A stretch of DNA of 64,000 nt from Dehalococcoidia bacterium (GCA_965203675.1 CBDBDE010000002.1:600990-664989), one strand, 5' to 3'. Counted from the first letter of the stretch, positions 23,397 to 63,821 are shown. Made by a program: numbers and translations. Notes: a model not told the origin generated them from the sequence alone.

Positions 23397-23494
23397 CCCC
23401 GGCACTCTGGCGTTGGCCGGACATTCGGCCTGGGAAACCGGCGGCTCCCCATAACATGCCATTGGATTTGAAACGGGTCTCCTGAGGAGTAGTT

Positions 23495-24187: not shown

Positions 24188-24238
24188 CCCCGGTACCGGG
24201 ACTTCCCTTCCTGCTCGGCTTCCTGACGCACCTTGACC

Positions 24239-43023: not shown

Positions 43024-43049
43024 ACTTGAGATTTCCCAAAGGAAGCAGA

Positions 43050-45281: not shown

Positions 45282-45402
45282 TCAAGGGAAGCACTGGCTT
45301 GCCTTCCGTCGACAGAGTGTATAATTCCTGCAAGTCCCCTCCGAATGGGGAATCACGAGTTGGCCCATGTTTGGGCCGAGATTATGGAAGGAGGAACCTG
45401 GC

Positions 45403-45945
45403 ATGGGTATTCAGATTAAGCGTGTTGGACATGTGGGGATCCTGGTATCCGATTTCGAGCGGTCATTCAAGTTCTACACCGAGGTCCTGGGCTGCAAGGT
45501 GACCTCGCGGCGCCGCCGGCCCGACGGAGCGGAGACGGCCTTCCTGCGGTTTGAAGAGACCCACCACGACTTCGTCATCGCCACCGCTCCCGACGACGTG
45601 GACGTTTCCGAGAACGTTGCCGCGCGGGCCCGTTTGGTGCAACAGGTGGCCTTCGAGGTGGAGAACCGGGATGAGTTCATGAAGGCTCTGGCCCACATCC
45701 ACACCCACGGCGCGGAGATTGTCAGCGGTCCCCTCACCCACGGCATCGAGTCCGGCGGGAACCTGGAGGGCAGCGGCAGCCGTTCCTTCTACTTCCTGGA
45801 CCCGGACGGCAACCGGCTGGAGATCTTCTGCGACGGAATGAAGGTGCCCAACGGGGAGCAGTTCCCCCGGGCCGAGTACGCCGACGCCATCAAGGACTTC
45901 ATGGACAAGAAGGCGGGCAAGGTCCCGGTCTCCGCGGACGACTAA
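45403..45945 (+). CDS. VOC-family protein (glyoxalase / extradiol dioxygenase fold)
   Basis: 'IKRVGHVGILVSDFERSFKFYTEVLG' and 'FYFLDPDGNRLEIF' are VOC beta-alpha-beta-beta-beta module signatures. GGAAGGAGG RBS. Confidence 0.8.
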   Translation: MGIQIKRVGHVGILVSDFERSFKFYTEVLGCKVTSRRRRPDGAETAFLRFEETHHDFVIATAPDDVDVSENVAARARLVQQVAFEVENRDEFMKALAHIHTHGAEIVSGPLTHGIESGGNLEGSGSRSFYFLDPDGNRLEIFCDGMKVPNGEQFPRAEYADAIKDFMDKKAGKVPVSADD

Positions 45946-45986
45946 ACAAAGCCGGCCGGACCTTCCGGCAGTCAGGCCAAAGAATG

Positions 45987-46018
45987 GACGGCGGGGAATT
46001 TCCCCGCCGTCCTGTTTT
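45987..46018. terminator. Rho-independent (probably bidirectional) terminator between convergent genes
   Basis: Perfect 10-bp stem gacggcgggg/ccccgccgtc with loop aattt, followed by ctgtttt. Confidence 0.7.
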
Positions 46019-46050
46019 CATGGAATGTCGTTACGGGAGCGCCGGAGTGG

Positions 46051-47592: not shown

Positions 47593-48471
47593 TTACCCCT
47601 GCCGCACGAACTTGTCGATGCCGGTGCCGTCGCTGAGGCCGACGTAGATATCGCCCCGTGAGTCCACCCAGCTGCCGTGCCCCGGGCCGCGGCAGGGGAA
47701 GCGGGCCAGGACGTTGCCCGATGTGTCCAGTACGCTGACCCTGGCCGAGGAGTCTTCAACCGGACCCTCGCTAATGACCAGGACGCCCTCGCTGTCCACG
47801 GAGATGTCCATGGGCCGCTGGATGTCGTCCCAGATGGCGATGAACTCGCCGTCCAGGGTGAAGAGCTGCATCCGGTGGTTCTCCCGGTCGCAGAGGAAGA
47901 TGGTGTCGTTGTGGATCAGAAGGCTGTGGGGCAGGTGGAAGTGCCCCGGCTCGGTCTTCCCCGGCGCTCCCCAGGACTGCTTGAGCTGGCCGTCCCAGGT
48001 GAAGCGATGGATGCGGGCGTTGCGGTACCCGTCGGAGACGTAGAGGTCGCCGGAGGGGGAGGGGATCATCTCGGTGGGATAGTTGAAGGGTCCGGCGGCC
48101 CGGGGGCACAAGTCCCCGGGGTTCTCGCAGCCGGTGTCCGAGTGGACGCCGTGGCGTCCCAGCATCTGGATGGGCTTGCCGTCAATGGTGTAGACCAGGC
48201 ACACGGAGTTGTCCCGGTCGGTGAGATAGACGGTGTCGTCTTCGATGTAGATGCCGTGGGCGAAGGAAAAGGCCCCGTTGCCCCAGCTGTCCAGCAGGTT
48301 CCCGTCCCGGTCGAAGATGAGGATGGGCGGGTCTTTGCGCTGGAAGGCGAATACCCGGTCCTGGGAGTCCGCGGCCATGGCGCTGACCATGGCAAAGGTC
48401 TCGCCCTCGGGCAGCTTGGCCCAGTTTTCCACCATCTCATAGGTATACTTGCCGCTTCCTACCGTGGTCAT
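47593..48471 (-). CDS. NHL-repeat / PAL-like six-bladed beta-propeller protein
   Basis: Repeated 'D..G.(I/V)YV.D..N.R(I/V)..F' blades ('DTVYLTDRDNSVCLVY', 'GDLYVSDGYRNARIHRF', 'DTIFLCDRENHRMQLF'). AAGGAGG RBS. Confidence 0.7.
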   Translation of the reverse strand: MTTVGSGKYTYEMVENWAKLPEGETFAMVSAMAADSQDRVFAFQRKDPPILIFDRDGNLLDSWGNGAFSFAHGIYIEDDTVYLTDRDNSVCLVYTIDGKPIQMLGRHGVHSDTGCENPGDLCPRAAGPFNYPTEMIPSPSGDLYVSDGYRNARIHRFTWDGQLKQSWGAPGKTEPGHFHLPHSLLIHNDTIFLCDRENHRMQLFTLDGEFIAIWDDIQRPMDISVDSEGVLVISEGPVEDSSARVSVLDTSGNVLARFPCRGPGHGSWVDSRGDIYVGLSDGTGIDKFVRQG

Positions 48472-48543
48472 GCTTCTGGCCTCCTTATAGGTGGGTTGGA
48501 TGGGGTGACTTGGATGACGCTATTGTAACGCGGGAGCCTGTGT

Positions 48544-49587
48544 TTATTTCAGGTGGGGCATTACCTCTTCGGAAAACAGCTTCATGGAACGCAAAACCTT
48601 TTCGTGCTCCATGCCGCCGAAGTCGAAATTGCAGCCGAAGTATTCGATGCCCTCGGCGCGGAGGGCGTTGATCCTGTCCAGGCATTGCCGGGGAGTGCCG
48701 ATGATGGCCCGGTTGTCGGCCAGGTATTCGTAGCTGAGGGGAAGCTGGTGCCGGGAGCGGCGCCAGTTGTCCATCTGCTGGTAGACTTCGCTGCCTTCTT
48801 CGATGTTGTTGCGCCACTGCATGATGTCGATTACCCAGTTAAGCTTGTCCAGGGTGTCGCGCCGGGCCTCATCCTCGCTCTCGGCAACGTAGAAGTAGCG
48901 GAAGAAGGGAATCTCCGACTTGGGCAGGTTGAATCCCGTATCGGCGGACTTGTCCACGAACCGTTGGCACAGGTCCAGGGCCTCCGAAGTGTCCTGCACC
49001 ACGGCGATGCAGAGGCTGTGTCCCGTGGATACCACGAAGTCCAGCGTGACCGGATTCCTGGTGGCGGCCAGGTAGATAGGGGGATGGGGTTGCTGGGCCG
49101 GTGTGGGCACTAGGTTGGCATGGCTGGCCTGGAAGTGCTTCCCGTCCATGGTGAAGTCGGGGGTCGTCCACAGGCCCTGGATCATTCTCACTGATTCCTG
49201 GAACCGGCTCTGGCTCTCGTCGGGGTCGACGTTGTATCCCCGGTACTCGTAGCCCGAGCCGGAGCCTCGCCCGAAGCCCACGTCCAGCCGGCCGCCGCTG
49301 ATCAGGTCCAGTGTGGCGGTGTCCTCGGCCAGGCGGAGTGGGTTGTGCAGCGGGGAAACGAGGACCGCGGTGCCGAGGCGTATCCGCTGGGTTCGGGCGG
49401 CGAGATGGGTGGCGACGATGAGCGACGAGGAGCCGATGCAGTAGCGGGTAAAATGGTGCTCGGCCAGCCAGGCGCTGTGGAATCCCAATTCCTCGGCATA
49501 CTGGACCTGCTCCGTGGTGTCGGCGATTACAGCGGCGGCCTCCCGGCCCTCGGGCCAGGGCAGGTGGGTGAAAAAGGCGAACTTCAT
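48544..49587 (-). CDS. LLM-class flavin-dependent oxidoreductase
   Basis: 'LGFHSAWLAEHHFTRY...ARTQRIRLGTAVLVSPLHNPLRLAEDTATLDLISGGRLDVGFGRG'. Confidence 0.85.
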   Translation of the reverse strand: MKFAFFTHLPWPEGREAAAVIADTTEQVQYAEELGFHSAWLAEHHFTRYCIGSSSLIVATHLAARTQRIRLGTAVLVSPLHNPLRLAEDTATLDLISGGRLDVGFGRGSGSGYEYRGYNVDPDESQSRFQESVRMIQGLWTTPDFTMDGKHFQASHANLVPTPAQQPHPPIYLAATRNPVTLDFVVSTGHSLCIAVVQDTSEALDLCQRFVDKSADTGFNLPKSEIPFFRYFYVAESEDEARRDTLDKLNWVIDIMQWRNNIEEGSEVYQQMDNWRRSRHQLPLSYEYLADNRAIIGTPRQCLDRINALRAEGIEYFGCNFDFGGMEHEKVLRSMKLFSEEVMPHLK

Positions 49588-49675: not shown

Positions 49676-51715
49676 TTAACCCAATGCGAACCATCCCAGG
49701 TGCCGGTGGCTCAGCAACCCGGCGTAAATCACGACAATGCCTATCCCGACGATGATGGAAAGCCACCGATCCGAGAGTTGGTGGCGGGTCTCGGGGAACA
49801 CGACCACATAGGGGGCTTGGGCCTCCGGTTCGTCCTGCCGGGGTTGTTGTTCCAACTGTCTCATGCCGCGCTCGTGGTGCAGGTCCCAAACGTTAATGGT
49901 TAGGAAAATGATGACGGCGGAGATCAGCATGGCGAACACGTCGATGAGGAACATGGAAAACGGTTGCTTCTCAGCATCGAATTCGGGACGGGAGAGCAGC
50001 GCGAAGAAAATAGTGATCCCGGCGAAGATGATCAGGGCGAACAGTTCTCCGAGGACCAGTCCCAACTGCTTGGAACGGGCCATGGCATCCAGGTCTGCTT
50101 CAGCCTCGTTGAAGGCTAACCGTTCCTCGACGTCGTTCAGAAAGACGGCGGAATTGAAGTAGCCCCGGGCTTGGGAATACGCTTCTTTGAGATCGGCCTG
50201 ATTCCTGGGTGCGTCGATGCGGATAACGCACTCCAGGATAGCGCGGTCTATGACGCCTCTCTTGGCAAACATGTCGAGCCTTCGGAATAGACTGAAGGCC
50301 TGCGCTTCTTCCGCGTGGCTGCGGGACACCAGGGTTGCGATTCGAAAGGCCAGCAACAGGGTGAATATGGTGGCCGAGAGTCCAACCACTTCGAAGTAAT
50401 GATCGGTCACCCAGGAATTATCACCATTGCTCAGGAAACCCTTGAATAGACTGCTCCGAAAATACACAAAAGTGCCACACGCGCCCAGCGCGATCATGAG
50501 CGCTTTGAATCCCCAGCGGATCTCGGCTTCGAAAATGAGGAGCAGGTTGGCGATGATGATGGCGACAACGCCGATGATTAGGTAATCTCCTGCGACCGAG
50601 ATTTTTTCGATCAGATACTCCCCGTTGACCACGGTTAACGAGAGAGCCAGGAGCCACAGCAGGGTCAATATGGGCCTCATGTGTTCCAGCGCGTTTATCC
50701 CGGGGTTGTGGGCCAACAGAATGCTGGACTGTCTCCAGGCTATCCCCGCGATGGGCTGGATCAATGCTCCCCCAATGATGATGAGTACTAGCGCACTGAC
50801 GGGAATAATTTCATTGATGGAAACGCTCTTGTCGAGAATGGTCTCACCGGAGTTGATGCCGATCAGCAGGCTCAGGGGAACTATCAGCAAGGTGGCGATG
50901 AGACCGGCGGCTGTGGCGCAAAACAGATCTATTGAGCGGGACTCATAGCCGCTGCGTTCGATCAAGTCGTCGGGCAGGGCTCCCCTCAAGCTGGCCCCCC
51001 AGGCCAGCGAACGCCTGTTGAGGCCGTAGATGATCGCTGAACCAACGGCGAGCAAAATACCCAGGGCCAATAGCCAGAGGGTCGGGTCCGCCGAGGAAGA
51101 TGCCGACCCCTGCAATGTGTCGGCGAGTTGTGTGACCCAGGCCGTCGGGCCAACTGAAGATGGCGTGGCCTCCCGCACTCCAGCTACGAGTTGGCCGGAT
51201 AGCACGAAGGCAGTGCCAACCACCCCTAGACCGATGAAGAGCACCTTTGCCGGGGTCATCGTCACGGAAGTCTCGTTGCCTTCCAGATCATGGTGCGACA
51301 GCCAGCTTGCCAGAATCGCAACGATTGGCGCGATTTCAAACAGGATAACGGCCACGGCCACGTCCAGATACCTCAGGGACATGGCGAACAGGGCTATGTT
51401 GAAATACGAGATGGCTATCAGCAGAATCTGAAAGCTGAACATCCTGCGGAAGACTGTTTTCCACACTGTCCAGTTGAAGAACAGCTTCGAAAAGCACGCC
51501 GCCAGGAACAGCGCGTATACAATGGCGATGCCGCCCCTCCACCCCATGGTGAACAAGAAGGGGTGGTCCTTGCTGTCGGTCAGCACGACGGCCACTGGTA
51601 TGAAGGAGTAGCAAAGGACGGCGAAGAGCATAAGCCCGGCGCTCTTCAGGTTGCTCTCCGGCCCTTCGGCATCCGCGCCTCTCGGAGTTAGGGCTGTTGT
51701 CAGATCTAATGCCAC
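49676..51715 (-). CDS. Large polytopic membrane protein, N-terminal half EamA/DMT-like (tentative); low GC
   Basis: 679 aa with more than 14 hydrophobic segments. A sampled line is about 50% GC versus about 65-70% in neighbours. GTG start at 51715 is uncertain. Confidence 0.55.
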   Translation of the reverse strand: MALDLTTALTPRGADAEGPESNLKSAGLMLFAVLCYSFIPVAVVLTDSKDHPFLFTMGWRGGIAIVYALFLAACFSKLFFNWTVWKTVFRRMFSFQILLIAISYFNIALFAMSLRYLDVAVAVILFEIAPIVAILASWLSHHDLEGNETSVTMTPAKVLFIGLGVVGTAFVLSGQLVAGVREATPSSVGPTAWVTQLADTLQGSASSSADPTLWLLALGILLAVGSAIIYGLNRRSLAWGASLRGALPDDLIERSGYESRSIDLFCATAAGLIATLLIVPLSLLIGINSGETILDKSVSINEIIPVSALVLIIIGGALIQPIAGIAWRQSSILLAHNPGINALEHMRPILTLLWLLALSLTVVNGEYLIEKISVAGDYLIIGVVAIIIANLLLIFEAEIRWGFKALMIALGACGTFVYFRSSLFKGFLSNGDNSWVTDHYFEVVGLSATIFTLLLAFRIATLVSRSHAEEAQAFSLFRRLDMFAKRGVIDRAILECVIRIDAPRNQADLKEAYSQARGYFNSAVFLNDVEERLAFNEAEADLDAMARSKQLGLVLGELFALIIFAGITIFFALLSRPEFDAEKQPFSMFLIDVFAMLISAVIIFLTINVWDLHHERGMRQLEQQPRQDEPEAQAPYVVVFPETRHQLSDRWLSIIVGIGIVVIYAGLLSHRHLGWFALG

Positions 51716-52092: not shown

Positions 52093-53496
52093 ATGCCAGG
52101 CAAGGAAGACATTGCCCTGATGGCCCACCTGATGCGCCGCGCCGGGTTCGGTGCGGGGCGCGACGAACTGGAGGCCAGGGCGGAGCAGGGCTATGAAGCC
52201 ACTGTGGAGGACCTGCTGAATCCCGACAATCACCCGCCGGTGGACGACGACGTGCTGTTCCGGTACTTCCCCAACTACGAAGGTGGGATGGCGCCGGTGC
52301 AGTCCCAGGCCCACTGGCTCTACCGCATGGTCAACACCCAGCGGCCGCTGGAGGAGAAGATGGTCCTCTTCTGGCACCAGCTTTTCGCCACCGGCAACTC
52401 TAAAATCGACAATCCGCCGGAGATGGTGCAGCAGATCGCCATGTTCCGCAGCCATGCCCTGGACCGGTTCCCCGACATCCTGGTCGAGCTGGCGAAAAAT
52501 CCGGCGATGATCTACTGGCTGGACAACAACGGCAACCACAAGGGTGCCATCAACGAGAACTGGGGACGGGAGCTGCTGGAGCTCTTCTCCATGGGCGTCG
52601 GCAACTACTCCGAGGACGACATCAAGGAAGCGTCCCGGGCCTTCACCGGCTGGACCATCGCCCCCAAGATTCCACGCCTGCCCCTGGGACGGTTCTACTG
52701 GGAGTTCGAGTACGATCCCGCGGACCACGACTTCGAGGAAAAGACCTTCCTTGGCGAGAAGGGAAACTTCAACGGCGACGACATCATCAATATCATTGTG
52801 CGGCAGCCGGCCACGGCCAGGTTCCTCTGCCGCCACCTGTACAACTTCTTCGTGGCTGACGAGGTCCAGGTGCCGGCGTGGAATGACACCCCGCCCAAGG
52901 ACCCCGAGGCAATCGAAATCCTGACCCAGTCCTACTTCGAGTCGGACTACGACCTGAAGGCCGTCCTGCGGACTCTGTTCAACTCGGACTTCTTCAAGAA
53001 TTCCCGCTTCACCCGGGTCAAGAGTCCCGCCGAGCTGGTGGTCAGCACCCTGCGGCTGTCGGGCGGCTTCAACGGGCCGCGGGAAGGCTATCAGGCCGCC
53101 GCCGCCGAGTGCGCCTTCCAGGGACAGGAACTGCTGAATCCCCCCAGCGTGGAAAGCTGGCACACCGGCGAGGAGTGGATTGACGGCGGCGCCCTGGTGC
53201 GCCGGGTCAACTTTGCCGCCAGGTACCTTTCCGACACCCGTATGCCGGGCATCAGCGCCATCGTCCAGCGCCTGAGGGAGCAGGGCAGCCTGACCCCGGA
53301 GCGGTTCGTGGACGAGTGCCTGGACCAGATGGGCCCTCTGAAAGTCGAGGAACCCACCCGCCGGGAGTTGGTCAACCAGGTCAGCGACGGCGGCGATATC
53401 CGCTGGGACAGCGACGAGGCCGCAGCGGACGCGGAGCGCCGGGCGGGAATAACGCTGGCGCTGGTGGCCGCGTCGAGAGAGTATCAGTTTGCCTAA
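52093..53496 (+). CDS. DUF1800 domain-containing protein (cassette A)
   Basis: 'HLMRRAGFGAGRDELE', 'MVLFWHQLFAT', 'PAMIYWLDNN...NENWGRELLELFSMGVGNYSEDDIKEASRAFTGWT' are hallmark DUF1800 segments. No signal peptide is evident. Confidence 0.8.
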   Translation: MPGKEDIALMAHLMRRAGFGAGRDELEARAEQGYEATVEDLLNPDNHPPVDDDVLFRYFPNYEGGMAPVQSQAHWLYRMVNTQRPLEEKMVLFWHQLFATGNSKIDNPPEMVQQIAMFRSHALDRFPDILVELAKNPAMIYWLDNNGNHKGAINENWGRELLELFSMGVGNYSEDDIKEASRAFTGWTIAPKIPRLPLGRFYWEFEYDPADHDFEEKTFLGEKGNFNGDDIINIIVRQPATARFLCRHLYNFFVADEVQVPAWNDTPPKDPEAIEILTQSYFESDYDLKAVLRTLFNSDFFKNSRFTRVKSPAELVVSTLRLSGGFNGPREGYQAAAAECAFQGQELLNPPSVESWHTGEEWIDGGALVRRVNFAARYLSDTRMPGISAIVQRLREQGSLTPERFVDECLDQMGPLKVEEPTRRELVNQVSDGGDIRWDSDEAAADAERRAGITLALVAASREYQFA

Positions 53497-53568
53497 ATCC
53501 CCCTGAGCCGGTGCGCCGGCTCTCCCCAACCAGTTTGCCCAAACAGCAAACCGCGGCAGGAGGAGATA

Positions 53569-54705
53569 ATGACCGCAACCAAGAAAGACCCCGTCCTGGT
53601 GATCCTGCAGCTCACCGGGGCCAACGATCCGCTGAGCACCGTCGTTCCCTACACCAATCCCCACTACCATGACGCACGGCCCAACGTGGGCATCGCCGCC
53701 GACAAGGTGCTGCCCATCAACGACACGCTGGGATTCAACCCCCACGTCGGAGCAGTCAAGCACCTGTGGGACCAGGGCAAGGTCGCCATCATTCAGGGCA
53801 TCGGCTACGAGAACTCGCCCCGATCCCACTTCCGCTCCATGGACATTTGGCACACCTGCGAGCCGGACAAGGTGGGGACGGAGGGCTGGGTCGGACGGGT
53901 CATCCGCGACCTGGACCCCAACGGATCCAACGTGCTCAAGGGAATCAACGTGGGACAGGGGCTGCCCCGGGCCATGGCCCTCAAGGGCGTTCCGGTGACG
54001 TCGGTGTCCGACCTGGAGTCCTACGGCGTGCTTACAGACGTTCCGGTGGTGGACAATCAGGCCGAGCGGGAACGGATGCTGGACATCTTCTCCCGCATTT
54101 ACTCCCCGACCATCGGCTCCGGCCCGGTAATGGACTACCTGAGCCAGACCGGGCGGAACGTGCTGGACGGAGCGGACGTCCTCAAGACCGCTCCCGATAA
54201 GTACAGCTCCAACGTGGAGTACGCTGCCTCTCCCATCGCCCAGGCTCTAAAAACCGTGGCGCAGGTGCACCTGGCCGATCTCGGGGCGCAGGTCTTCTAC
54301 ACCCAGCATGGCAGCTTCGACACCCACTTCAACCAGGTCATGATGCACACGCGCCTGTGGACGGACGTGGGGCAGGCCATCGGCAACTTCTTCGATGACC
54401 TGCGGGAGCACGACGCAGCGGACAACGTCATCATGATGCTGTTCACCGAGTTCGGGCGCCGGGTCAAGGACAACGGCACCGGCACCGACCACGGCGCAGG
54501 CGGTGTCGCCTTCGTCATCGGCGATCCGGTCCAGGGCGGGCTGTACGGGACCTATCCCTCGCTGGCTCCTGAGGATCTGACCCAGGGCGACCTTGCTCCC
54601 AGCTACGACTTCCGCGGCTTCTACGCCTCGCTGTGCGAGCGTTGGCTGGGGCTGGATTCGGCGACCATCGTCGGCGGAACCTACGAGCAGATGGCCTTCG
54701 TCTAG
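53569..54705 (+). CDS. DUF1501 domain-containing protein (sulfatase/alkaline-phosphatase-like fold) (cassette A)
   Basis: 'YTQHGSFDTHFNQ' and 'FTEFGRRVKDNGTGTDHGAGG' are typical DUF1501 motifs. GGAGGAG RBS directly before ATG, with no Tat or Sec leader. Confidence 0.8.
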   Translation: MTATKKDPVLVILQLTGANDPLSTVVPYTNPHYHDARPNVGIAADKVLPINDTLGFNPHVGAVKHLWDQGKVAIIQGIGYENSPRSHFRSMDIWHTCEPDKVGTEGWVGRVIRDLDPNGSNVLKGINVGQGLPRAMALKGVPVTSVSDLESYGVLTDVPVVDNQAERERMLDIFSRIYSPTIGSGPVMDYLSQTGRNVLDGADVLKTAPDKYSSNVEYAASPIAQALKTVAQVHLADLGAQVFYTQHGSFDTHFNQVMMHTRLWTDVGQAIGNFFDDLREHDAADNVIMMLFTEFGRRVKDNGTGTDHGAGGVAFVIGDPVQGGLYGTYPSLAPEDLTQGDLAPSYDFRGFYASLCERWLGLDSATIVGGTYEQMAFV

Positions 54706-54818
54706 CCGAGGACCGAACACGGCAGGATACTCGGGCAGACCGCTGGCGGCCAAGCTGGGAATCAGGGCTGGCGCTGCGGTCTGCTTCTTCAGTGTGCTTC
54801 TGGAAATGGGCGAACCCC

Positions 54819-55346
54819 ATGAGGGTGGATGACTTGACCACGGAATTACCTGATCCCGGCTCCGCTTCGTCGGAAGACTACGCGGCCATTAGCCGGCGTT
54901 TCGCTGCCCATGCCCGGGATGAATTGAGCCTGGGGAACCGGCTGCAAGCGTCCGAGAAGGTTTGGGGAGCGGCCAACTACGCTCTCAAAGCCGTAGCCGT
55001 CCAGCGGGGCTGGCGGCACCGCGGCCAGCGAAACGTGTTTGCCGTGGCTGACCAGTTGGCGGCGGAACGCAACCGCCCCGCCTTCAAGGAATACCTGATG
55101 ATGGCGCGTGCGATACACTTTAACTTCTATGAGAATGACCTGGAAGCTTCGGATGTTGAAGAAGGGATTGATGCCGTCGATCGGTACCTTGCCGACCTGG
55201 ACGCGGTAAGGGCTTCTCCACCGCAGCCGTTCCGAATCTCCGACAGGAGAGACCAAAACCGGATTGCCCGCCTGGTAGGGGAAACCTTCCCCATCGGCAC
55301 TTACTCGGAAGAGGGGTTTATTCAACCGCTTGGTTCAACGAACTGA
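54819..55346 (+). CDS. Small helical protein, PaREP1/HEPN-like (tentative), paralog of 42637-43023
   Basis: 175 aa from ATG 54819. Contains 'ASEKVWGAANYALKAVAVQRGW' and 'ARAIHFNFYEN'. Confidence 0.5.
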   Translation: MRVDDLTTELPDPGSASSEDYAAISRRFAAHARDELSLGNRLQASEKVWGAANYALKAVAVQRGWRHRGQRNVFAVADQLAAERNRPAFKEYLMMARAIHFNFYENDLEASDVEEGIDAVDRYLADLDAVRASPPQPFRISDRRDQNRIARLVGETFPIGTYSEEGFIQPLGSTN

Positions 55347-55373
55347 ATTCTCTGATTACCTTTCGGGGGGATC

Positions 55374-56372
55374 ATGCTTACAACCATCGCGGCGGGCCGC
55401 GTAATCAACTTCAGCCACTGCTTAGGGATGTACTCCATGGGCGGCCTGGGTTTCTGGGACCCGGTGGACTTCGCCTTCGGCGCCGACGACCGGCTGTACG
55501 TGGTCAACCGGGGCGCTGAGGAATTGGGACAGCGGGTCAGCATCTGCACCCGGGACCATGAGTTCATCTCTCAATTCGGCTCCTTTGGATACGGAGACGG
55601 ACAGTTCATCTGGCCGTCATCCCTGGACATCGACGGCGACGGCAACGTCTACGTTTCCGACGAGAACCTGCACCGCATCAACATCTACGACGCCGGCGGG
55701 CAGTTCCTGTCCAGGTGGGGCGAGGCCGGGTCCGGGGAAGGCCAGCTTCAGGGCCCCTCCGGCGTGGCAGTTGCCCCGGACGGCAATGTCTACGTCGTAG
55801 AGAGCGGAAACAACCGCATCCAGAAGTTCACCAGGGATGGGGAGTTCCTCGGCGGATGGGGCGAAGCCGGTGACGGCCGTGGCCAGTTCAACATGCCCTG
55901 GGGCATCGCCATGGACCAATCTGGCAACGTCTACGTGGCGGACTGGAAGAACAGCCGAGTCCGGAAGTTCAGTGCCAACGGGCTTTTCCTGGCCTCCTTC
56001 CAGGCCGATGCTCAGGGACTGGGGGAGCTTAACCGTCCCACCAGCGTTGCAGTGGACAGCGACGGCGACGTTTACGTAACTGACTGGGGCAGCCACGTCG
56101 TGCAGATTTATGCGCCGGATGGGTCATTCATCACCTCCCTGGTCGGCGACGCCCAGGAGCCCTCGCCCTGGACCCAGACATACCTGGACGCCAACCCGGA
56201 GATCCTGAAGCAGCGGCGCCGGGTTGACCTGACCCCGGAGTGGCGGTTCCGCCGTCCCGTGGCCATCAACGTAGATGAGCAGGACAACATCTACGTCCTG
56301 GAGTCGGTGCGGCACCGCTTTCAGATCTACCAGAAGGAAAAGGACTACGAGGAAGCGGCCCTTAACCTGTAG
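55374..56372 (+). CDS. NHL-repeat beta-propeller protein (cassette A)
   Basis: Six blades of 'G.G.GQF..P.G(I/V)A.D..GN(I/V)YV.D..N.R(I/V)QKF', e.g. 'GNVYVVESGNNRIQKF' and 'GNVYVADWKNSRVRKF'. Confidence 0.8.
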   Translation: MLTTIAAGRVINFSHCLGMYSMGGLGFWDPVDFAFGADDRLYVVNRGAEELGQRVSICTRDHEFISQFGSFGYGDGQFIWPSSLDIDGDGNVYVSDENLHRINIYDAGGQFLSRWGEAGSGEGQLQGPSGVAVAPDGNVYVVESGNNRIQKFTRDGEFLGGWGEAGDGRGQFNMPWGIAMDQSGNVYVADWKNSRVRKFSANGLFLASFQADAQGLGELNRPTSVAVDSDGDVYVTDWGSHVVQIYAPDGSFITSLVGDAQEPSPWTQTYLDANPEILKQRRRVDLTPEWRFRRPVAINVDEQDNIYVLESVRHRFQIYQKEKDYEEAALNL

Positions 56373-56419
56373 TCTAGGCTCGAATCCCGCAACGGCGGCA
56401 ACCCATCATCGGAGTTTTC

Positions 56420-57592
56420 ATGTCTTTGGAATTTGGCGTTTTCGACCACATCGAACCCGTCCCTGGCCTGCCACTGGACGAGATTTACCGTCTAAGGCTG
56501 AAACAACTGGAGCGGCTGGACTCGGCCGGGTTCTACTCCTACCACTTGGCGGAGCACCACACTCCGGCAGTCCACAGCCTGGCCCCGTCGCAGAACATAT
56601 TTCTGGCGGCGGCGGCCCAGCGCACCAGCCGCATCCACTTGGGGCCGTGTATCTACGTCCTGCCCCTGCATCACCCGCTGCGACTCATCGAAGAAATCTG
56701 TATGCTGGACAACCTGTGCGACGGTCGGATGGAGATTGGCGTCGGCCGTGGCGGAGTCCTGGAAGCCTACTTCTGGGGGCAGGAGTCCGACGTCGAGATC
56801 AACTTCGCCCGTTACCGGGAGAACCTGGATATCATCCAGTACGGTCTGAGCCACGAGGAACTGGACTACGATGGGGAGTTCTTCAAGTTCGAGAGGCTTC
56901 CCATGCGGCTGCGTCCCAAGCAGACACCCTATCCGCCCTTCTGGTACATGAGGAACGTGGAGACCGCGGCGATGGATGGGATGAACACCATCATCGTCGG
57001 CGGACTGGACAGCTTCGAGGCCAACGTCCGCAGATACAAGGAGCTTTGGGAGGAGTACCAGGGCAAGGGCGCACTGACCCTCCAGGGTACCAAGCCCAAG
57101 ATTAGCCTGGTGAACCACCTGGTCCTGGCGGAGACGGACGAGGAAGCCCGCCGCATCGGCGAGCCGGCCTGGGATCACTACAAGTGGAACCTGGGAACGC
57201 CGCGCCGCCTGGAGGCGGAGAGCCGGGGGCTGACCCAGTTCCTGGTGCCCAATGACCAGATGCGTCCCCGGGGCGCGCCGGACCGGGAGGCCCGCCGCGA
57301 CCTCTACTGGGAAATGGAGCAGCGTTCCGAGGAACAGCAGCGGCGGCGCCAGGCCCCCGGCGGTCTGGGAGGTGTGGCCGGACAGGGCGCCGGTTTCGGA
57401 GTCATCGCCGGCTCACCGGCCAGCGTGCGCGAGTACATGGATGAGTACGTCAGCACCGGGGCCAACTACTTCGTCTGCTCCTTCCAGTGGGGCGACCTGA
57501 CCCACGAACAGGCCATGCAGTCCCTGGAGCTGTTCGTCCAGGAGATAATGCCCCACTACTCCGGGACGGTTGAGGTAGCCGCCTCAGTCTGA
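56420..57592 (+). CDS. LLM-class flavin-dependent oxidoreductase (cassette A)
   Basis: 'AGFYSYHLAEHHTPAVHSLAPS...QRTSRIHLGPCIYVLPLHHPLRLIEEICMLDNLCDGRMEIGVGRG'. Confidence 0.85.
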   Translation: MSLEFGVFDHIEPVPGLPLDEIYRLRLKQLERLDSAGFYSYHLAEHHTPAVHSLAPSQNIFLAAAAQRTSRIHLGPCIYVLPLHHPLRLIEEICMLDNLCDGRMEIGVGRGGVLEAYFWGQESDVEINFARYRENLDIIQYGLSHEELDYDGEFFKFERLPMRLRPKQTPYPPFWYMRNVETAAMDGMNTIIVGGLDSFEANVRRYKELWEEYQGKGALTLQGTKPKISLVNHLVLAETDEEARRIGEPAWDHYKWNLGTPRRLEAESRGLTQFLVPNDQMRPRGAPDREARRDLYWEMEQRSEEQQRRRQAPGGLGGVAGQGAGFGVIAGSPASVREYMDEYVSTGANYFVCSFQWGDLTHEQAMQSLELFVQEIMPHYSGTVEVAASV

Positions 57593-57631
57593 GCGGTCGT
57601 ACCCGATAACCCGGTCCAGCCAGAGAAGGGG

Positions 57632-57680
57632 GACGGGCAGGCCCAGCTTGTTGCCTGGAGCCTGCCCGTCCTTCTTCTGC
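57632..57680. terminator. Hairpin between convergent genes (candidate bidirectional terminator)
   Basis: 11-bp stem gacgggcaggc/gcctgcccgtc with a 17-nt loop, followed by a cttcttct tract. Confidence 0.5.
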
Positions 57681-57686
57681 TGGGAG

Positions 57687-58025
57687 TTATTCCTCCGACG
57701 GCCTTATCTGGAGGGTGACGTTGTATCCGTCCGGGTAAGTGGTGGTGTGGCCCTGCCCCGTGGTGTCCTCGATCAGCCGCACGTCCCCCACCTCGAAGGT
57801 GTGCGACGTCCCGTCGGCCAGCCCGATGATCGTCCTTCCCACCAGTCCCACCTGCCAGCGTCTGAAGGGAGCGGGATGGTAGTCGGAGAAATGCCCCGGC
57901 TCCCGCTGGGACACGGCGAAGCTCATCCTCGCTCCCTCGACCCGGATCTCCTTCAGGGCATCCTCGGCCAATTCCTCAATGTGGCTCTTGCCGTCGTCGC
58001 CGGAATAAAGGCGGTAAACTCCCAT
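57687..58025 (-). CDS. Small cupin-like protein (tentative)
   Basis: 112 aa from ATG 58025 (GGAGAAG RBS). 'GDVRLIEDTTGQGHTT' resembles a cupin-type beta-barrel family. Confidence 0.45.
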   Translation of the reverse strand: MGVYRLYSGDDGKSHIEELAEDALKEIRVEGARMSFAVSQREPGHFSDYHPAPFRRWQVGLVGRTIIGLADGTSHTFEVGDVRLIEDTTGQGHTTTYPDGYNVTLQIRPSEE

Positions 58026-58371
58026 GATGCTTCTCCACGCGGTGTTTTCCCGGGTTTCACCGACCCGGCGGGGCTGTTTAGCATACCGGGAAGGGATGGC
58101 TGTCGCATTTGGATTTGGCAGGCGGCGCGGGACCCGGTGTGGAGCCGTCGCCCCATGCACCCTGTTCCCCTGGGATTGCTGACAGCAGCCCGTTGACGCC
58201 AGGCCCGGAGCAGGGTAGCGTAAATAATGTTGGACAAGATCATCCCTGCCTCTACTCGTCTTCCTCTAGTCCGTATGGCGTATCATCAGTTTTCACTGTC
58301 CTTCTTTGGGACGGCGACCCGGCCGCTGGGCCCGCCTGGTTTATCGGAATGGTTCCTGGGTACTTGCCGGA

Positions 58372-58512
58372 ATGTCTCGAAAATGTCCCAAAATGTCTCA
58401 CCATGTCCCAATTCCCGTCCCGATATGTCCCGTAGGCGGCACCAAAAAGCCTCCAAATGGCACTGAAATCACAGGAATTCAGGGGATTTACGCACAAAAC
58501 GGCCAAATGTCC
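58372..58512 (+). repeat. Phased ATGTC(C/T) word array, 6 copies on one strand
   Basis: Copies start at 58372, 58383, 58393, 58403 and 58425 (steps of 11, 10, 10 and 22 bp), plus one at 58507. AT-rich divergent intergenic region upstream of DUF1800 cassette B. Confidence 0.85.
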
Positions 58513-58740
58513 CACAAGTAAATTTTCCTCAGTTTCCCTTGGTGCGATAACCCTGGCCCGGGAGGCATTCCGGTCGGCCACCCTTCCGCGGTTGAACCCG
58601 TATTTCTGCTGGACTGAGAAGGGGCAATCGTGTACCATTTGGGGCAACATCGGGGAGTCCGGGTTTCGTAAACTTGGGCTCGTTCCGGGGAACATTTCAA
58701 GCGTCCCGGGGCGTTTGGCTCCGGGGAAAGGACAGAGAAT

Positions 58741-60150
58741 ATGCCCGGTGGTGAAGACCTGGCCTTGATGGCCCACCTGATGCGCCGCGCCGGGTTCGGC
58801 GCCAACCGCGACGAACTGGAAAGAAGGCTGGCCAAGGGATACGAAGCCACGGTGGAGGAACTGCTCAACCCGGAGCAGCAGCCGCCCTTCGACGACGACC
58901 TGGCCTACCGCTACATTCCCTACTACCGCATGGGGACGGGTGTCCCCTCCTACCAGACCTACTGGATGTACCGCATGGTGGCGACCCAGCGGCCGCTGGA
59001 AGAGAAGATGACCCTGTTCTGGCACCACATCTTCGCCACCAGCCACTCCAAGATGAACCGCAACCCGCAGATGAACCAGCAGCTGCAGCTTTTCCGCGGG
59101 TTCGCCCTGGGCAGCTTCCGCACCATCCTTATCGAGCTGTCCAAGGACCCGGCCATGATCTACTGGCTCGACAACAACGAGAACCACAACGGCGCTCCCA
59201 ACGAGAACTACGGCCGGGAGCTGCTGGAGTTGTTCTCCATGGGCGTCGGCAAGGACATGGAGTTCAACTACTCCGAGGACGATGTCAAGGAGTGCGCCCG
59301 GGCCTTCACCGGCTGGACGATGGCACCCCAGCTGCCGCGCTATCCCTATGGCGACTACTGCTGGCAGTTCGAGTACCGTTCCGATGACCATGACCACGGC
59401 GAGAAGACCTTCCTTGGCGAGAGTGGGCGGTTCAACGGCGAGGATGTCGTTGACATCATCGTCCGCCAGCCGGCCACCGCCCGGTTCGTGGCCCGCCACT
59501 TGTACAACTTCTTCGTCGCCGACGAGCCCCAGGTGCCGGCTTGGCAGACCACGCCGCCCCAGGATATGGACGCCATCCAGGCCCTGGAGGACGAGTACTT
59601 CCGCTCGAACGGAGACATCCGCTGTATGCTGCGGGTGCTGTTTAACTCGGACTTCTTCAAGGAAGCCCGCTATAAGAAAGTCAAGAGCCCGGCGGAGTTG
59701 GTGGCCGGCGTGATGCGCTTGGTGGACGACTACACGTCGCCCAAGCCCAACAGCCACGAGATCACCTTCGCCTCCGCCTATATGGGACAGGACCTGCTCA
59801 ACCCGCCGACCGTCGAAGGCTGGCACACCGGCCGCGAGTGGATCGACAGCGGCGCCCTGGTGGAGCGGGTTAACTTCGCCGCCGACCGGGTGGGCAACAT
59901 CGACAACCCCGGCGTCCGGCGGATGGTTGACCGCCTGCGGCCCGAAGCCGAGACCCTGACCGCCGAGGAGCTGGTGGACGCCTGCCTGGACCTGGCCGGT
60001 CCGGTGGTGGTTTCCGACGACCGGCGGGCGGAGCTGGTGGCCCACGTCCAGCGGGACCAGGCCGCCAAGCCCGGGGGTGACGCCTTCGAGCAGCGGGTTA
60101 CCGGCCTGCTCCGGCTCATCGTATCTTCCCGCGAATACCAGTTCGCGTAG
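58741..60150 (+). CDS. DUF1800 domain-containing protein (cassette B)
   Basis: Alignable along its full length with 52093-53496. Shared runs include 'LMAHLMRRAGFGA', 'PAMIYWLDNN', 'GRELLELFSMGVG' and 'IIVRQPATARF'. Confidence 0.8.
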   Translation: MPGGEDLALMAHLMRRAGFGANRDELERRLAKGYEATVEELLNPEQQPPFDDDLAYRYIPYYRMGTGVPSYQTYWMYRMVATQRPLEEKMTLFWHHIFATSHSKMNRNPQMNQQLQLFRGFALGSFRTILIELSKDPAMIYWLDNNENHNGAPNENYGRELLELFSMGVGKDMEFNYSEDDVKECARAFTGWTMAPQLPRYPYGDYCWQFEYRSDDHDHGEKTFLGESGRFNGEDVVDIIVRQPATARFVARHLYNFFVADEPQVPAWQTTPPQDMDAIQALEDEYFRSNGDIRCMLRVLFNSDFFKEARYKKVKSPAELVAGVMRLVDDYTSPKPNSHEITFASAYMGQDLLNPPTVEGWHTGREWIDSGALVERVNFAADRVGNIDNPGVRRMVDRLRPEAETLTAEELVDACLDLAGPVVVSDDRRAELVAHVQRDQAAKPGGDAFEQRVTGLLRLIVSSREYQFA

Positions 60151-60162
60151 GGAGGTGACAGC

Positions 60163-61152
60163 GTGACTTCGACTGCAACCAGGACGCCAACCTATCGTTA
60201 TAGCTACACCATCGGCAACCAGGCTACGCCGCCGGCTCACGGCTTTTCCGGCCCGGTCAGTGTCGCCTGCGCCGGTGACGGCCTGCTGTACGTGATGTGC
60301 AGCTACTACGAGTACCAGCCCGCCTGGAAGTTCGTCGCCAAGTGCAACATGGACGAGGACTACCTGGGTGCCTTCGGTTCCTACGGGGCGGGCGATGGCC
60401 AGTTCACTTGGCCCAACACCGTCGCCGTTGACCGCACCGGCCTGGTCTACGTTTCCGACGAATGGCTCCAGCGCATCTCTGTCTTCGACGGGGACGGGCA
60501 GTTCATCAGGAAAATGGAGCAGCAAGGATTCTCCGACGGCCAGTGGGACCGGCCCGCCGGGATCATCTTCGATGCCGACGATAACATGCTGGTGGTGGAC
60601 AGCCTGAACAGCCGCGTTCAGAAACTCACCAAGGACGGCGAGTTCATCAGCAAGTTCGGGGAGTTCGGAGATGGCGAAGGCCAGTTCAACACTCCCTGGG
60701 GCATCAACCTGGACCGGGACGGCAACATCTACGTTGCCGACTGGCGCAACGACCGCATCCAGAAGTTCGACCCCGAGGGCCGCTTCCTCCAGCAGTTCGG
60801 CGGTCCCGGGGACGGGGAAGGCGGCCTGCGCCGTCCCAGCGGCGTGGCGGTGGACTCCCAGGGCTACGTTTACGTCTCCGACTGGGGCCACGACATCGTG
60901 CAGGTCTTCGACCCCCAGGGCGCATACGTAACCAGGTTCATCGGCGACTGCCACGGCTACTCCAAGTGGGCCGTAGCCCGCATGGCCTCCGACCCGGAGG
61001 GCATGTCCAAGGAGCGGGCGGTGGTCAAGGACTTCACCGTCGAGCGCGTGTTCTTCCAGCCAACCACGGTAAGAGTTGACGACCAGGACCGCATCCTGGT
61101 CGTGGATACCGGGCGGCACCGCATCCAGATTTACGAGCGGGTCCCCGAATAG
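60163..61152 (+). CDS. NHL-repeat beta-propeller protein (cassette B)
   Basis: GTG start after GGGAGG. Blades include 'GLVYVSDEWLQRISVF', 'NMLVVDSLNSRVQKL', 'GNIYVADWRNDRIQKF', 'GYVYVSDWGHDIVQVF'. Confidence 0.8.
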   Translation: MTSTATRTPTYRYSYTIGNQATPPAHGFSGPVSVACAGDGLLYVMCSYYEYQPAWKFVAKCNMDEDYLGAFGSYGAGDGQFTWPNTVAVDRTGLVYVSDEWLQRISVFDGDGQFIRKMEQQGFSDGQWDRPAGIIFDADDNMLVVDSLNSRVQKLTKDGEFISKFGEFGDGEGQFNTPWGINLDRDGNIYVADWRNDRIQKFDPEGRFLQQFGGPGDGEGGLRRPSGVAVDSQGYVYVSDWGHDIVQVFDPQGAYVTRFIGDCHGYSKWAVARMASDPEGMSKERAVVKDFTVERVFFQPTTVRVDDQDRILVVDTGRHRIQIYERVPE

Positions 61153-61216
61153 CGTCTCCCGGACCACCAGCGCTGGCCGCCAGGCCGCGACTCTCACAAC
61201 AAGAGGAGCAAACAAC

Positions 61217-62344
61217 ATGACCTCAACCCACAAGGACCCGATCCTGGTAGTCATCCAGCTCACCGGTGGCAACGACTACCTGAACACGCTGATTCCCTAC
61301 GGTGACCCGCTGTACTACGACAACCGCAGCAACGTGGCCATCCCAGCCGAGGAAGTGCTCCCGCTGGACGGCCATTTCGGGTTTCACCCTGCAGCGGCCC
61401 CCATCAAGGGCCTGTACGACCAGGGCAAGGTAGCCATCATTAACGGCGTCGGCTACCCCAACCCTAACCGGTCCCACTTCCGCTCCATGGACATCTGGCA
61501 CACCTGCGAGCCGGACAAGGTCGGCACCGAGGGCTGGCTGGGACGGGTCATCCGAGACCTGGACCCCAAGGCGGAGAACGTGCTGACCGGCGTTAACTTC
61601 GGACGCGGCCTTCCCCGGGCCCTGGCCCTCTCCGGCGTTCCTGTTGCCTCCGTCGCCGTCTTGGAGACCTACGGCGTCCTGACAGGCATCAGCGAGGAGC
61701 CGGACCGGAGCGAGGCGCTAGACGTCTTTGCCCGCATGTACGCCCCGACGCTGGGCAGCGGTCCGGTGATGGAGTACTTGGGGCAGACCGGGCTGGACGC
61801 GCTCAAGGGAGCGGACATCCTGAAGACGGCCCCGGAAAAGTACAACACCGAGATCGAGTACGCCGACTCCCCCATCGGGCGCAACCTGCAGGGCATCTCC
61901 AAGGTCCTGACCGCCGGCCTGGGCACCCGCATCTTCTACACCCAGCACGGCGGCTATGACACCCACGCCAACCAGGGGCCGGTGCATCCCAAGCTGTGGA
62001 CCGAGCTTTCCCAGGGCGTGTCTGACTTCTACGCCGACCTCAGGGCCCACGACATGGCCGACAACGTGCTGATGTTCGTGTTCACCGAATTCGGCCGCCG
62101 GGTCCGGGACAACGGCTCCGGCACCGACCACGGCTCGGGCGGACTCGCCCTGGCCATTGGCGACCCGGTGAAAGGCGGCATGTACAGCGAGTACCCGTCC
62201 CTTAAGGACGAGGACCTGCTGGAAGGCGACCTGCACTTCAACATGGACTACCGGGGCGTCTACGGGACCATGGTAGAGAAGTGGCTGGGCCTGGACGCCA
62301 ACGCTGTCACCGGCGGCAACTTCGAGCAACTCGACTTTGTCTAG
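61217..62344 (+). CDS. DUF1501 domain-containing protein (cassette B)
   Basis: Shares 'RSHFRSMDIWHTCEPDKVGTEGW', 'GRVIRDLDP', 'YTQHGG.DTH.NQ' and 'FTEFGRRV.DNG.GTDHG' with 53569-54705. Start at ATG 61217 (GAGGAG RBS), with no leader peptide. Confidence 0.8.
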   Translation: MTSTHKDPILVVIQLTGGNDYLNTLIPYGDPLYYDNRSNVAIPAEEVLPLDGHFGFHPAAAPIKGLYDQGKVAIINGVGYPNPNRSHFRSMDIWHTCEPDKVGTEGWLGRVIRDLDPKAENVLTGVNFGRGLPRALALSGVPVASVAVLETYGVLTGISEEPDRSEALDVFARMYAPTLGSGPVMEYLGQTGLDALKGADILKTAPEKYNTEIEYADSPIGRNLQGISKVLTAGLGTRIFYTQHGGYDTHANQGPVHPKLWTELSQGVSDFYADLRAHDMADNVLMFVFTEFGRRVRDNGSGTDHGSGGLALAIGDPVKGGMYSEYPSLKDEDLLEGDLHFNMDYRGVYGTMVEKWLGLDANAVTGGNFEQLDFV

Positions 62345-62465
62345 ACCAGTCCCCCTATTGAGAAATACGGTCAAGACACCGGGGCGCACCCGACGAGGTG
62401 TGCCCCTTCTTTCTCCCCGCAAAGCGTCCCAACGTGCCAGCCCTATGTAAGGAGCCGAACCACCC

Positions 62466-63821
62466 TTGTCCCAACGCAACCCCAAGCAGATGGTTCTGGT
62501 GGGATTCATTCAGGCTTCCAACTGTTCCAACTACCCGGGTTCCTGGCGGCACCGGGACGGGTCCGGCGATTTTTTGCTCCCGGGGTACTACCAGCACATC
62601 GCTCAGACGCTGGAAAAGGGCAAGTTCCACCTGGCCTTCGTGGACGACCGGCTGGCCATGCCCGACCGCTACGGCGACTCCATCGCGGCGACGGTGGAGC
62701 ACGGCATACGGACGGTCAAGCTGGACCTGGGACCGGTGGTCACGGCCATGGTCTTGGCTACGGAGCGTATCGGGACCGGCGCTACCTATTCCACGACCTA
62801 CCACACCCCCTTCCACGTCGCCCGCCTCTTCGCCACCCTGGACCACTTCAGCGGGGGGCGCATCGCCTGGAACGTGGTCACGTCCCTGAATGATTCGGAA
62901 GCGTTGAACTTCGGGGAGGATGCCCACCTTCCCCACGACCTGCGCTACGACCGGGCCGACGAGTTCATGGAGACCGCCTTCGGCCTGTGGGACACCTGGG
63001 GCGAGGAGGCGTTGGTCCTGGACCGGGTGGAAGGGCGGTTCGCCGATCCTTCCCGGGTGCGCCGCCTGGACCACAGCGGCGAGTGGTTCAAGTCCCGGGG
63101 CCCACTGACCGTCCCACGCTGCCCTCAGGGGCGGCCGGTAATCATCCAGGCGGGACAGAGCGGCCGCGGGCGGGAGTTCGCCGCCCGGTGGGGTGAGCTG
63201 GTGTTTGTAATCGTTCCCACCCTGGAAGCCTGCCGCGTCCACCGCATGACCATCCGGGAAAAGGCCGCCGACCAGGGCCGCGACCCGGACACGGCCATCG
63301 TATCGCCGGCGGTCTACGTAGTGGTCGACGAAACCGAAGACCGGGCGCGGGACAAGCTGGAGGCGTTGAGAGCGCTGGCCCATCCGATGGACTCGGTGGT
63401 GCTGCTGTCGGAGGTCTTCAACTACGACTTCTCAGCCCATCCGCTGGACGAGCCCCTTTCCGACGACGTGCTGGGATCGATATCCGGCCTGAGGGGTTTC
63501 CTCGACCGGGTCACGCAGCGCAGCGCCGGGGGCAACCCATCGGTGCGGGACTTCATCCGATTCAGTGGGCGGGGGACGCTGGACGAGTTGCCCACCTTCG
63601 CGGGCACTTCTGCCCAAGTGGCCGATGGCTTGGAAAAATGGTTCCGGGAGGGGGCTTGTGACGGATTCGTGCTGGCGGCTACCCACATCCCGGGCGCCTA
63701 CGAGGACTTCGTGGAGATGGTGGTCCCGGAATTGCAGCGGCGGGGATTGTTCCGCACTGGCTACCGGGGAGCGACCCTGCGGGAAAACCTGGGTCTGGAG
63801 CGGCCCGAAGCCTGGAGCTAG
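62466..63821 (+). CDS. LLM-class flavin-dependent monooxygenase, NtaA/SnaA/DszA-like subfamily (cassette B)
   Basis: 'KQMVLVGFIQASNCSNYPGSWRH', 'ATERIGTGATYSTTYHTPFHVARLFATLDHFSGGRIAWNVVTS' and 451-aa length are typical of nitrilotriacetate-monooxygenase component A relatives. TTG start is tentative. Confidence 0.8.
   Translation: MSQRNPKQMVLVGFIQASNCSNYPGSWRHRDGSGDFLLPGYYQHIAQTLEKGKFHLAFVDDRLAMPDRYGDSIAATVEHGIRTVKLDLGPVVTAMVLATERIGTGATYSTTYHTPFHVARLFATLDHFSGGRIAWNVVTSLNDSEALNFGEDAHLPHDLRYDRADEFMETAFGLWDTWGEEALVLDRVEGRFADPSRVRRLDHSGEWFKSRGPLTVPRCPQGRPVIIQAGQSGRGREFAARWGELVFVIVPTLEACRVHRMTIREKAADQGRDPDTAIVSPAVYVVVDETEDRARDKLEALRALAHPMDSVVLLSEVFNYDFSAHPLDEPLSDDVLGSISGLRGFLDRVTQRSAGGNPSVRDFIRFSGRGTLDELPTFAGTSAQVADGLEKWFREGACDGFVLAATHIPGAYEDFVEMVVPELQRRGLFRTGYRGATLRENLGLERPEAWS

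Follow-up and report, generated by a model that had tools for sequence, protein, structure and literature searches.

A leaderless DUF1800–DUF1501–NHL gene triad in marine SAR202-type Dehalococcoidia

The DUF1800 and DUF1501 families are large, uncharacterized, and broadly distributed across Pseudomonadota, Bacteroidota, Actinomycetota, PVC bacteria, and Chloroflexota. Their genes have been described as an operon pair that carries a twin-arginine translocation (Tat) motif, with no function assigned (PMC5122149, PMC3542564). Here, we analyze a 64,000-nucleotide stretch from a Dehalococcoidia bacterium (GCA_965203675.1 CBDBDE010000002.1:600990-664989; hereafter the window, meaning the stretch at its full length), in which two paralogous cassettes, A and B, each bring together a DUF1800 gene, a DUF1501 gene, and a gene for an NHL beta-propeller, with a luciferase-like monooxygenase (LLM) gene downstream (Table 1). 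The closest described systems, the Tat-exported DUF1800–DUF1501 pairs of Proteobacteria, Bacteroidota, Actinomycetota, and PVC bacteria, share with these cassettes their Pfam families, gene order, and invariant DUF1501 residues. In contrast to the exported pairs, the triads of the SAR202 clade lack the twin-arginine leader, possess the propeller as a third gene, feature a distinctive cysteine (Cys97), and encode a DUF1501 protein that matches only part of the Pfam DUF1501 model.

Few bacterial clades are as abundant in the dark ocean as SAR202, whose expanded enzyme families are thought to degrade recalcitrant organic matter. Three clusters of orthologous groups (COGs) are pertinent here: COG4102, which we take to be DUF1501, COG5267, presumably DUF1800, and COG3391, presumably the beta-propeller. 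In a single sentence, Saw et al. (2020; PMC6946804) describe these three COGs as uncharacterized and as correlated with one another within the 50 COGs that are most abundant in SAR202. That report concerns the same organism group and, on the above mapping, the same three families, and contains no gene-level analysis; the co-expansion is thus already on record, and the three-gene operon described below explains the published copy-number correlation. A literature search found no paper joining DUF1501 with SAR202. As far as is visible, what is new is the organization as an operon, the lost leader, the association of the propeller with leaderless proteins, and the finding that the LLM genes do not belong.

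We consider it likely that these elements form a single picture, namely, a three-gene operon that derives from the Tat-type pair, lacks its leader, and does not include the LLM. As such, the unit for expression and testing consists of three proteins rather than four. Furthermore, leaderless proteins should be simpler to produce in Escherichia coli than Tat-dependent ones, which offers a route to a first function for DUF1800 and DUF1501.

A recurrent three-gene operon and its paralogues

A scan of the species genomes of GTDB returned at least 588 related stretches; the locus counts given here refer to the best 80, from 71 assemblies, in which genes were called and then searched with the window proteins. 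Wherever one of these assemblies names a taxon, it is Dehalococcoidia, Chloroflexota/Chloroflexi, or SAR202. Homologues of both DUF proteins numbered 8000 candidates, all of them significant, and the named ones derive from SAR202/Dehalococcoidia (Chloroflexota) metagenome genomes.

The 80 loci contain 73 triads in which DUF1800, DUF1501, and NHL follow one another on the same strand, with medians of 51 and 73 nt for the two intergenic gaps. A sigma-70-like promoter match (TTGAC[AT]-N15-19-TAnnnT) lies ~100 nt 5′ of DUF1800 in 51 of 77 instances, compared to 1 of 86 before DUF1501 and 0 of 78 before NHL, and a stable hairpin is located 3′ of the NHL stop codon in 54% of triads versus 18% 3′ of DUF1800. 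Because the similarity scores of the three proteins strongly co-vary across loci (Spearman 0.86–0.89 for bit scores against the window copies), the triad is one unit in inheritance and duplication. The same arrangement surrounds three distant leaderless relatives, P0241, P0246, and P0264, at 56%, 43%, and 38% identity. The linkage of the three families suggested by a preliminary description of this DNA, which had joined them and the LLM into a four-component module, therefore extends well beyond this genome, and DUF1800–DUF1501–NHL is almost certainly a real three-gene operon. It is multi-copy in marine SAR202-type Dehalococcoidia, where it forms at least four paralogous lineages. The 378-aa length of DUF1501_A is retained by most of 120 listed relatives (71–97% identity).

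Within the window, the gene content and order claimed for both cassettes were reproduced by an open reading frame (ORF) map and Pfam scans, and the coordinates bear out the exchange of NHL and DUF1501 in cassette B. Full-length pairwise BLASTP gives identities between the A and B copies of 59% for DUF1800, 60% for DUF1501, and 42% for NHL; each pair aligns over its whole length, and all three identical peptides quoted in the preliminary description occur in both copies. It had also placed the two LLMs in different subfamilies, which is correct: LLM_B is of the NtaA/DmoA type, LLM_A falls below all subfamily cutoffs, and pairwise BLASTP found no significant similarity between the two. The possibility that the cassettes merely belong to a larger segmental duplication was pursued as well; they are old paralogues, ~60% identical and assigned to different orthologous clusters, and not the product of a recent duplication.

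The DUF1501 sequences of the loci group into four paralogous clusters. The A-type cluster (50 members) exhibits the canonical DUF1800–DUF1501–NHL order without exception, while the B-type cluster (18 members) is found in canonical order, in permuted order, as DUF1501–DUF1800–NHL (L073), or as a solo gene. Given this invariance of the A type and variability of the B type, the canonical order is ancestral and cassette B an old rearrangement, not an artefact. The permuted order of the window (DUF1800, NHL, DUF1501) recurs in L001, a fully syntenic locus 97% identical to the window, and in the divergent L046.

Nine assemblies occur twice among the best 80 loci. Three tandem triads and an extra propeller gene occupy L078 (3134–16787), and two tandem triads are present in L045 (3947–12173); in both loci, the operon has been duplicated in full, locally and in tandem. 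Solo genes were also inspected. In L053, L058, L066, L072, L075, and L076 (~10001–11130), DUF1501_B orthologues have neither DUF1800 nor a propeller within 10 kb, and in four of these six loci an NYN-domain and/or radical-SAM/HhH gene lies downstream of DUF1501. In a single case, L048 (11290–12036), a gene of the TauE/SafE sulfite-exporter family stands directly 3′ of a solo leaderless DUF1501 and could hint at sulfur-ester chemistry. An alternative conserved partner for the solo B-type genes was considered and rejected, their neighbors being mixed (NYN, radical-SAM/HHH, TauE exporter, ABC transporter) with no common clue.

Leader loss and putative chemistry of the triad

Both DUF1501 proteins begin at the mature domain with a ribosome-binding site (RBS) just upstream, as initially proposed. 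The start of DUF1501_A is the first start codon past an in-frame stop, with the RBS GGAGGAG just 5′ of it. In DUF1501_B, the RBS AAGAGGAG precedes the ATG at 61217, and the sole possible extension (47 codons, in an ORF from 61076) is read-through of the 3′ end of NHL_B, in which no twin-arginine (RR) motif or hydrophobic stretch was found. Simple motif and hydropathy checks of the six window proteins found no Tat-like leader, Sec-like hydrophobic N-terminus, or membrane segment (a 19-residue hydrophobic stretch). The possibility of leaders reached through alternative starts was addressed with ~80 orthologues per family for all three families: at the median, the N-terminus could be extended by 0–1 residue, longer extensions are unconserved read-through, and none of the possible extensions contains a Tat-like leader. 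The leaderless state is a character of the whole clade.

The relatives outside the clade, retrieved by a search of 1.84 billion cluster representatives, are organized differently. The next outside DUF1501 relatives (≤43% identity) are 400–440 aa long, and their alignment begins at ~residue 40–55. An RR motif within a ~40–60-residue leader is present in 110 of 120 full-length outside representatives in the same identity range, and the consensus of 125 DUF1501 sequences opens with MxxxxRRxFL. The TAT_signal model matches neither window DUF1501 and matches one relative, P0253. Tat-bearing relatives occur as DUF1800–DUF1501 pairs without NHL in all six informative neighborhoods (Chondrinema, Miltoncostaea, Vibrio plasmids, and three metagenome proteins), and DUF1800 lies directly 5′ of DUF1501 in each of the nine outgroup neighborhoods with a visible upstream gene. 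A residue-level marker accompanies this division: Cys97 (in WHTCEP; window 53857–53859 in DUF1501_A, with an equivalent in DUF1501_B) is present in 87 of 87 leaderless DUF1501 proteins of the SAR202 clade; at this position, 118 of 121 mostly Tat-bearing relatives have Ala or Gly. The triad represents a derived, leaderless form of the widespread DUF1800/DUF1501 pair, and the propeller goes with the leaderless clade. The notable loss is that of the DUF1501 leader, since some DUF1800 partners of Tat-type DUF1501 proteins are themselves without signals. The RR in the DUF1800 N-terminus (LMRRAGFGA) was rejected as a Tat signal: it belongs to a conserved mature motif, is followed by charged residues, and is not kept in other DUF1800 proteins.

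Lacking leaders, the three proteins are therefore quite likely cytoplasmic. They could still function outside the cytoplasm in the same role as the Tat-exported pair, either hitch-hiking with a signal-bearing partner whose gene lies elsewhere or exported along a non-classical route. The signal-free DUF1800 partners of some Tat-bearing DUF1501 proteins (Chondrinema) suggest that hitch-hiking already exists in the family, and the catalytic residues are the same in leaderless and Tat-type proteins. Against this stand the absence of a leader from every triad protein throughout the orthologue sets, the failure to find a conserved signal-bearing gene flanking the triad, and the clade-invariant Cys97, which better suits a reducing compartment. 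Continued export thus appears improbable, and a cytoplasmic location is preferred.

Clues to the chemistry come primarily from DUF1501. D20, H87, D251, H253, D307, and H308 (DUF1501_A numbering) are invariant and S86 is nearly so, both among 125 diverse DUF1501 sequences and in 87 of 87 clade members; D20, S86/H87, D251/H253, and D307/H308 are carried by both window copies. The order of these residues appears to resemble the bimetal site and Ser/Thr nucleophile of the alkaline-phosphatase superfamily, whose members such as nucleotide pyrophosphatases/phosphodiesterases (NPPs) and sulfatases display the same succession of an Asp after strand 1, a Ser/Thr-type nucleophile, Asp-x-His, and Asp-His. 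Unlike established members, DUF1501 has no significant sequence or structure match to the superfamily, and partnership with DUF1800 and a propeller is no feature of known ones. We also take the Pfam clan of DUF1501 to be that of the alkaline-phosphatase superfamily.

Of the two partners, DUF1800_A is all-alpha in an AlphaFold2 model (predicted local distance difference test, pLDDT, 73.6; predicted template modeling score, pTM, 0.80), for which Foldseek found no fold relative in the PDB (best E = 1.3). Its family-wide invariant polar residues are R16, E155, N156, R159, E160, Y172, D176, and H212. NHL_A finds its best PDB matches in the NHL domains of Thin, TRIM71, and TRIM2 (E 3e-57 to 5e-50) and in the PknD sensor domain. 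The triad propeller shares with propellers of the ScyF, TRIM, and PknD types the six-bladed NHL architecture and scores 192 bits against the ScyF model, below the equivalog cutoff of 350. In contrast to these types, it stands alone at ~330 aa, lacks a signal, PEP-CTERM tag, or RING/B-box, and contains a conserved insertion near the last blade. Searches of solved structures with the DUF1501 profiles and with DUF1800 gave no meaningful match; the sole hits, to stathmin and NS3, were spurious.

In the model we favor, DUF1501 would belong to the alkaline-phosphatase superfamily as a metal-dependent hydrolase or transferase, with DUF1800 as its obligatory all-alpha partner and the NHL propeller as a clade-specific third subunit that either binds the substrate or serves as a scaffold. 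The paralogous triads would work in the cytoplasm, on imported ester-type substrates (phospho-, sulfo-, or similar) that differ from one triad to another, a division of labor in keeping with the known tendency of SAR202 to expand enzyme paralogues. Our best guess is that the complex is a cytoplasmic alkaline-phosphatase-superfamily hydrolase; hydrolysis of phospho- or sulfo-esters in particular is a tentative proposal, possible but with less than an even chance. A broader scenario is more speculative and, taken as a whole, rather unlikely: in SAR202, loss of the Tat leader may have been coupled with recruitment of the NHL propeller, such that an exported pair became a cytoplasmic three-subunit metallo-hydrolase, whose paralogues would strip phosphate, sulfate, or related esters from imported refractory dissolved organic matter.

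A number of observations weigh against this interpretation. The cytoplasmic location is read only from the lack of recognizable signals in simple motif and hydrophobicity checks. The coupling of propeller and leaderless state meets a counterexample in the leaderless P0268, which has a DUF1800–DUF1501 pair without a propeller; two relatives with short non-RR N-termini, whose starts are possibly miscalled, are likewise without one. In the 80 loci, six to eight DUF1501 genes of the B type are solo, so joint action of the three proteins need not be universal. The DUF1501 model, built from an 11-sequence alignment, is unreliable (pLDDT 48.6), and while all 50 listed Foldseek matches of this poor model are sulfatases, NPP/autotaxin, or LtaS-type proteins, each has E > 0.1. 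Profiles (hidden Markov models, HMMs) of 11 and 125 sequences, run against the PDB sequences, found no solved relative of DUF1501, so that its superfamily placement depends on the residue pattern and on the Pfam clan. No catalytic residues were found in the propeller, where the invariant NHL residues are the usual structural repeat motifs. Lastly, the substrate class is a guess.

A rival reading is a non-catalytic assembly of structural, regulatory, or ligand-sensing nature, in which the propeller would be a binding platform and DUF1501 a pseudo-enzyme. Among solved structures, those nearest to the propeller are binding domains (TRIM-NHL and the PknD sensor), the propeller has no obvious catalytic residues of its own, and DUF1800 has no known fold relative. 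However, the putative metal and nucleophile residues of DUF1501 are invariant at ~33% to 97% identity, as is typical of active enzymes, and many paralogues lie beside diverse catabolic genes, like other SAR202 enzyme expansions (PMC6946804). We therefore give a pseudo-enzyme assembly only a slim chance and retain the hydrolase model as the preferred one.

The neighboring LLM genes

The four-component module of the preliminary description, in which a flavin monooxygenase would work with the other three proteins, perhaps in a catabolic system, stands in its DUF1800/DUF1501/NHL portion and falls in its LLM portion. Some features of the window do favor it. An LLM gene follows both cassettes; LLM_A begins 47 nt 3′ of NHL_A with no hairpin between them, and a strong hairpin follows LLM_A; and the arrangement is retained in L001 and, for cassette A only, in L002. 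Given the 47-nt gap and a hairpin located only after LLM_A, this gene may be co-transcribed with triad A, in close relatives only.

Beyond these loci the association dissolves. Apart from the window, an LLM follows a triad only in L001 and L002. Iterative HMM searches detected an LLM in the position directly downstream (+1) in 0 of 65 triads outside the clade of the window, against a background of 52 LLMs among 1094 genes of the loci (4.8%); a Pfam scan of the gene directly 3′ of 64 triads identified a single LLM, in the 97%-identical L001. The genes that do occupy this position include menaquinone-biosynthesis-like, aminotransferase IV, isochorismatase, RadC, and hydrolase genes, and approximately half of the downstream genes are on the opposite strand. 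Orthologues of the B-type DUF1501 elsewhere have MFS, NYN, or radical-SAM genes next downstream. Within the window itself, LLM_A and LLM_B come from unrelated subfamilies, and a terminator-like hairpin lies 5′ of LLM_B. Moreover, LLM genes are common in any event, with 4 among the 46 called genes of the window, and hugely expanded in SAR202, where five partial genomes contain 152 FMNO/LLM genes (PMC5395668). A functional four-component module is thus largely refuted by the neighborhoods and very improbable; the flanking LLMs are ordinary neighbors in an LLM-rich genome and no members of the module.

A third NHL-like and LLM pair, NHL_C and LLM_C, had also been pointed out at 47593–49587. The pair exists, and NHL_C is only 24–28% identical to NHL_A. 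As a conserved pairing it was rejected: only 16 metagenome loci were recovered, their LLM adjacency is inconsistent, and in L086, where the NHL_C relative is 91% identical, an aminotransferase replaces the LLM.

Features of the window

Table 1. Positions of the cassette genes, associated hairpins, and the third NHL/LLM pair in the window
Feature	Position	Strand	Remarks
NHL_C	47593–48471	−	Pfam match
LLM_C	48544–49587	−	Pfam match
DUF1800_A	52093–53496	+	First gene of triad A; 467 aa, no leader; PF08811 342.7 bits
DUF1501_A	53569–54705	+	Leaderless, putative alkaline-phosphatase-like family member; 378 aa; PF07394 80.5 bits
PaREP1-like gene	54819–55346	+	Small gene inside operon A, outside the conserved module; PF05942 E = 1.8e-13
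NHL_A	55374–56372	+	Third gene of triad A; six-bladed NHL beta-propeller; Pfam NHL 137.5 bits
LLM_A	56420–57592	+	Lineage-specific neighbor, no module member; Bac_luciferase 142.6 bits
Hairpin 3′ of LLM_A	57615–57684	+	Very stable, GC-rich, directly 3′ of LLM_A stop; probable transcript terminator of cassette A
DUF1800_B	58741–60150	+	First gene of triad B; PF08811 352.5 bits
NHL_B	60163–61152	+	Shifted to middle position of triad B; Pfam NHL 101.4 bits
DUF1501_B	61217–62344	+	Leaderless; 375 aa; PF07394 83.3 bits
Hairpin between DUF1501_B and LLM_B	62381–62406	+	Terminator-like, GC-rich; 10-bp stem, 8 GC pairs, T-rich tail
LLM_B	62466–63821	+	NtaA/DmoA-family FMN monooxygenase, neighbor only; Bac_luciferase 123.9 bits; TIGR03860 473 bits (cutoff 279.7)

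The two DUF1800 proteins match PF08811 nearly end to end (profile positions 1–418 of 419). Both DUF1501 copies score above the PF07394 gathering cutoff of 27, and their best stretch covers only profile positions ~228–379 of 390; NCBIfam was found to hold no model for DUF1800 or DUF1501. LLM_A passes no NCBIfam subfamily cutoff and is a generic LLM. In cassette A, DUF1800 and DUF1501 are on the same strand, 72 nt apart, and in cassette B the NHL gene sits between them; NHL_B uses a GTG start with the RBS GGGAGGTGA, 12 nt past the DUF1800_B stop. The RNA fold of 57593–57720, which spans the hairpin after LLM_A, has an energy of −69.7 kcal/mol (z = −4.76), with none of 200 shuffles equally stable, and the smaller hairpin before LLM_B is present in both the minimum free energy fold and the centroid fold. 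Past the LLM_A hairpin lies a minus-strand ORF of 157 aa (57687–58160) without a Pfam match.

The PaREP1-like match falls within an ORF at 54633–55346, whose likely start, judged from the sequence, is the ATG at 54819. This insertion stretches the usual ~70-nt gap between DUF1501 and NHL to 668 nt and is found between these two genes only in the window, L001, and L002 among the 80 loci; other PaREP1-like copies are located elsewhere in L002, L066, and L072. The gene, from an archaeal-type family, resembles a small insertion of a mobile or selfish kind.

Rfam and tRNA scans of the 64-kb window found no RNA genes. A phosphate-uptake cluster, pstS-pstC-pstA-pstB-phoU, occupies 18070–24187; its PstS is unusually long (733 aa) and contains two periplasmic-binding-protein domains, and the cluster is followed by a MIP channel gene (24233–24967). 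As a clue to phosphorus chemistry in the triads this cluster was set aside: it is 28 kb upstream and does not recur near triads. Regions 5′ of the cassettes (43026–47397 and 49676–51715) contain genes for oxidative enzymes, namely, a molybdenum hydroxylase large subunit, a glyoxalase-fold protein, and a Rieske LigXa-like oxygenase, and for a 679-aa protein that weakly matches EamA transporters and is encoded between NHL_C/LLM_C and cassette A. Local G+C declines to 0.564 at 50–52 kb and reaches the window minimum, 0.545, at 12001–14000, where gene calling is ambiguous between a 513-aa minus-strand ORF (12364–13905) and an alternative at 13640–14704.

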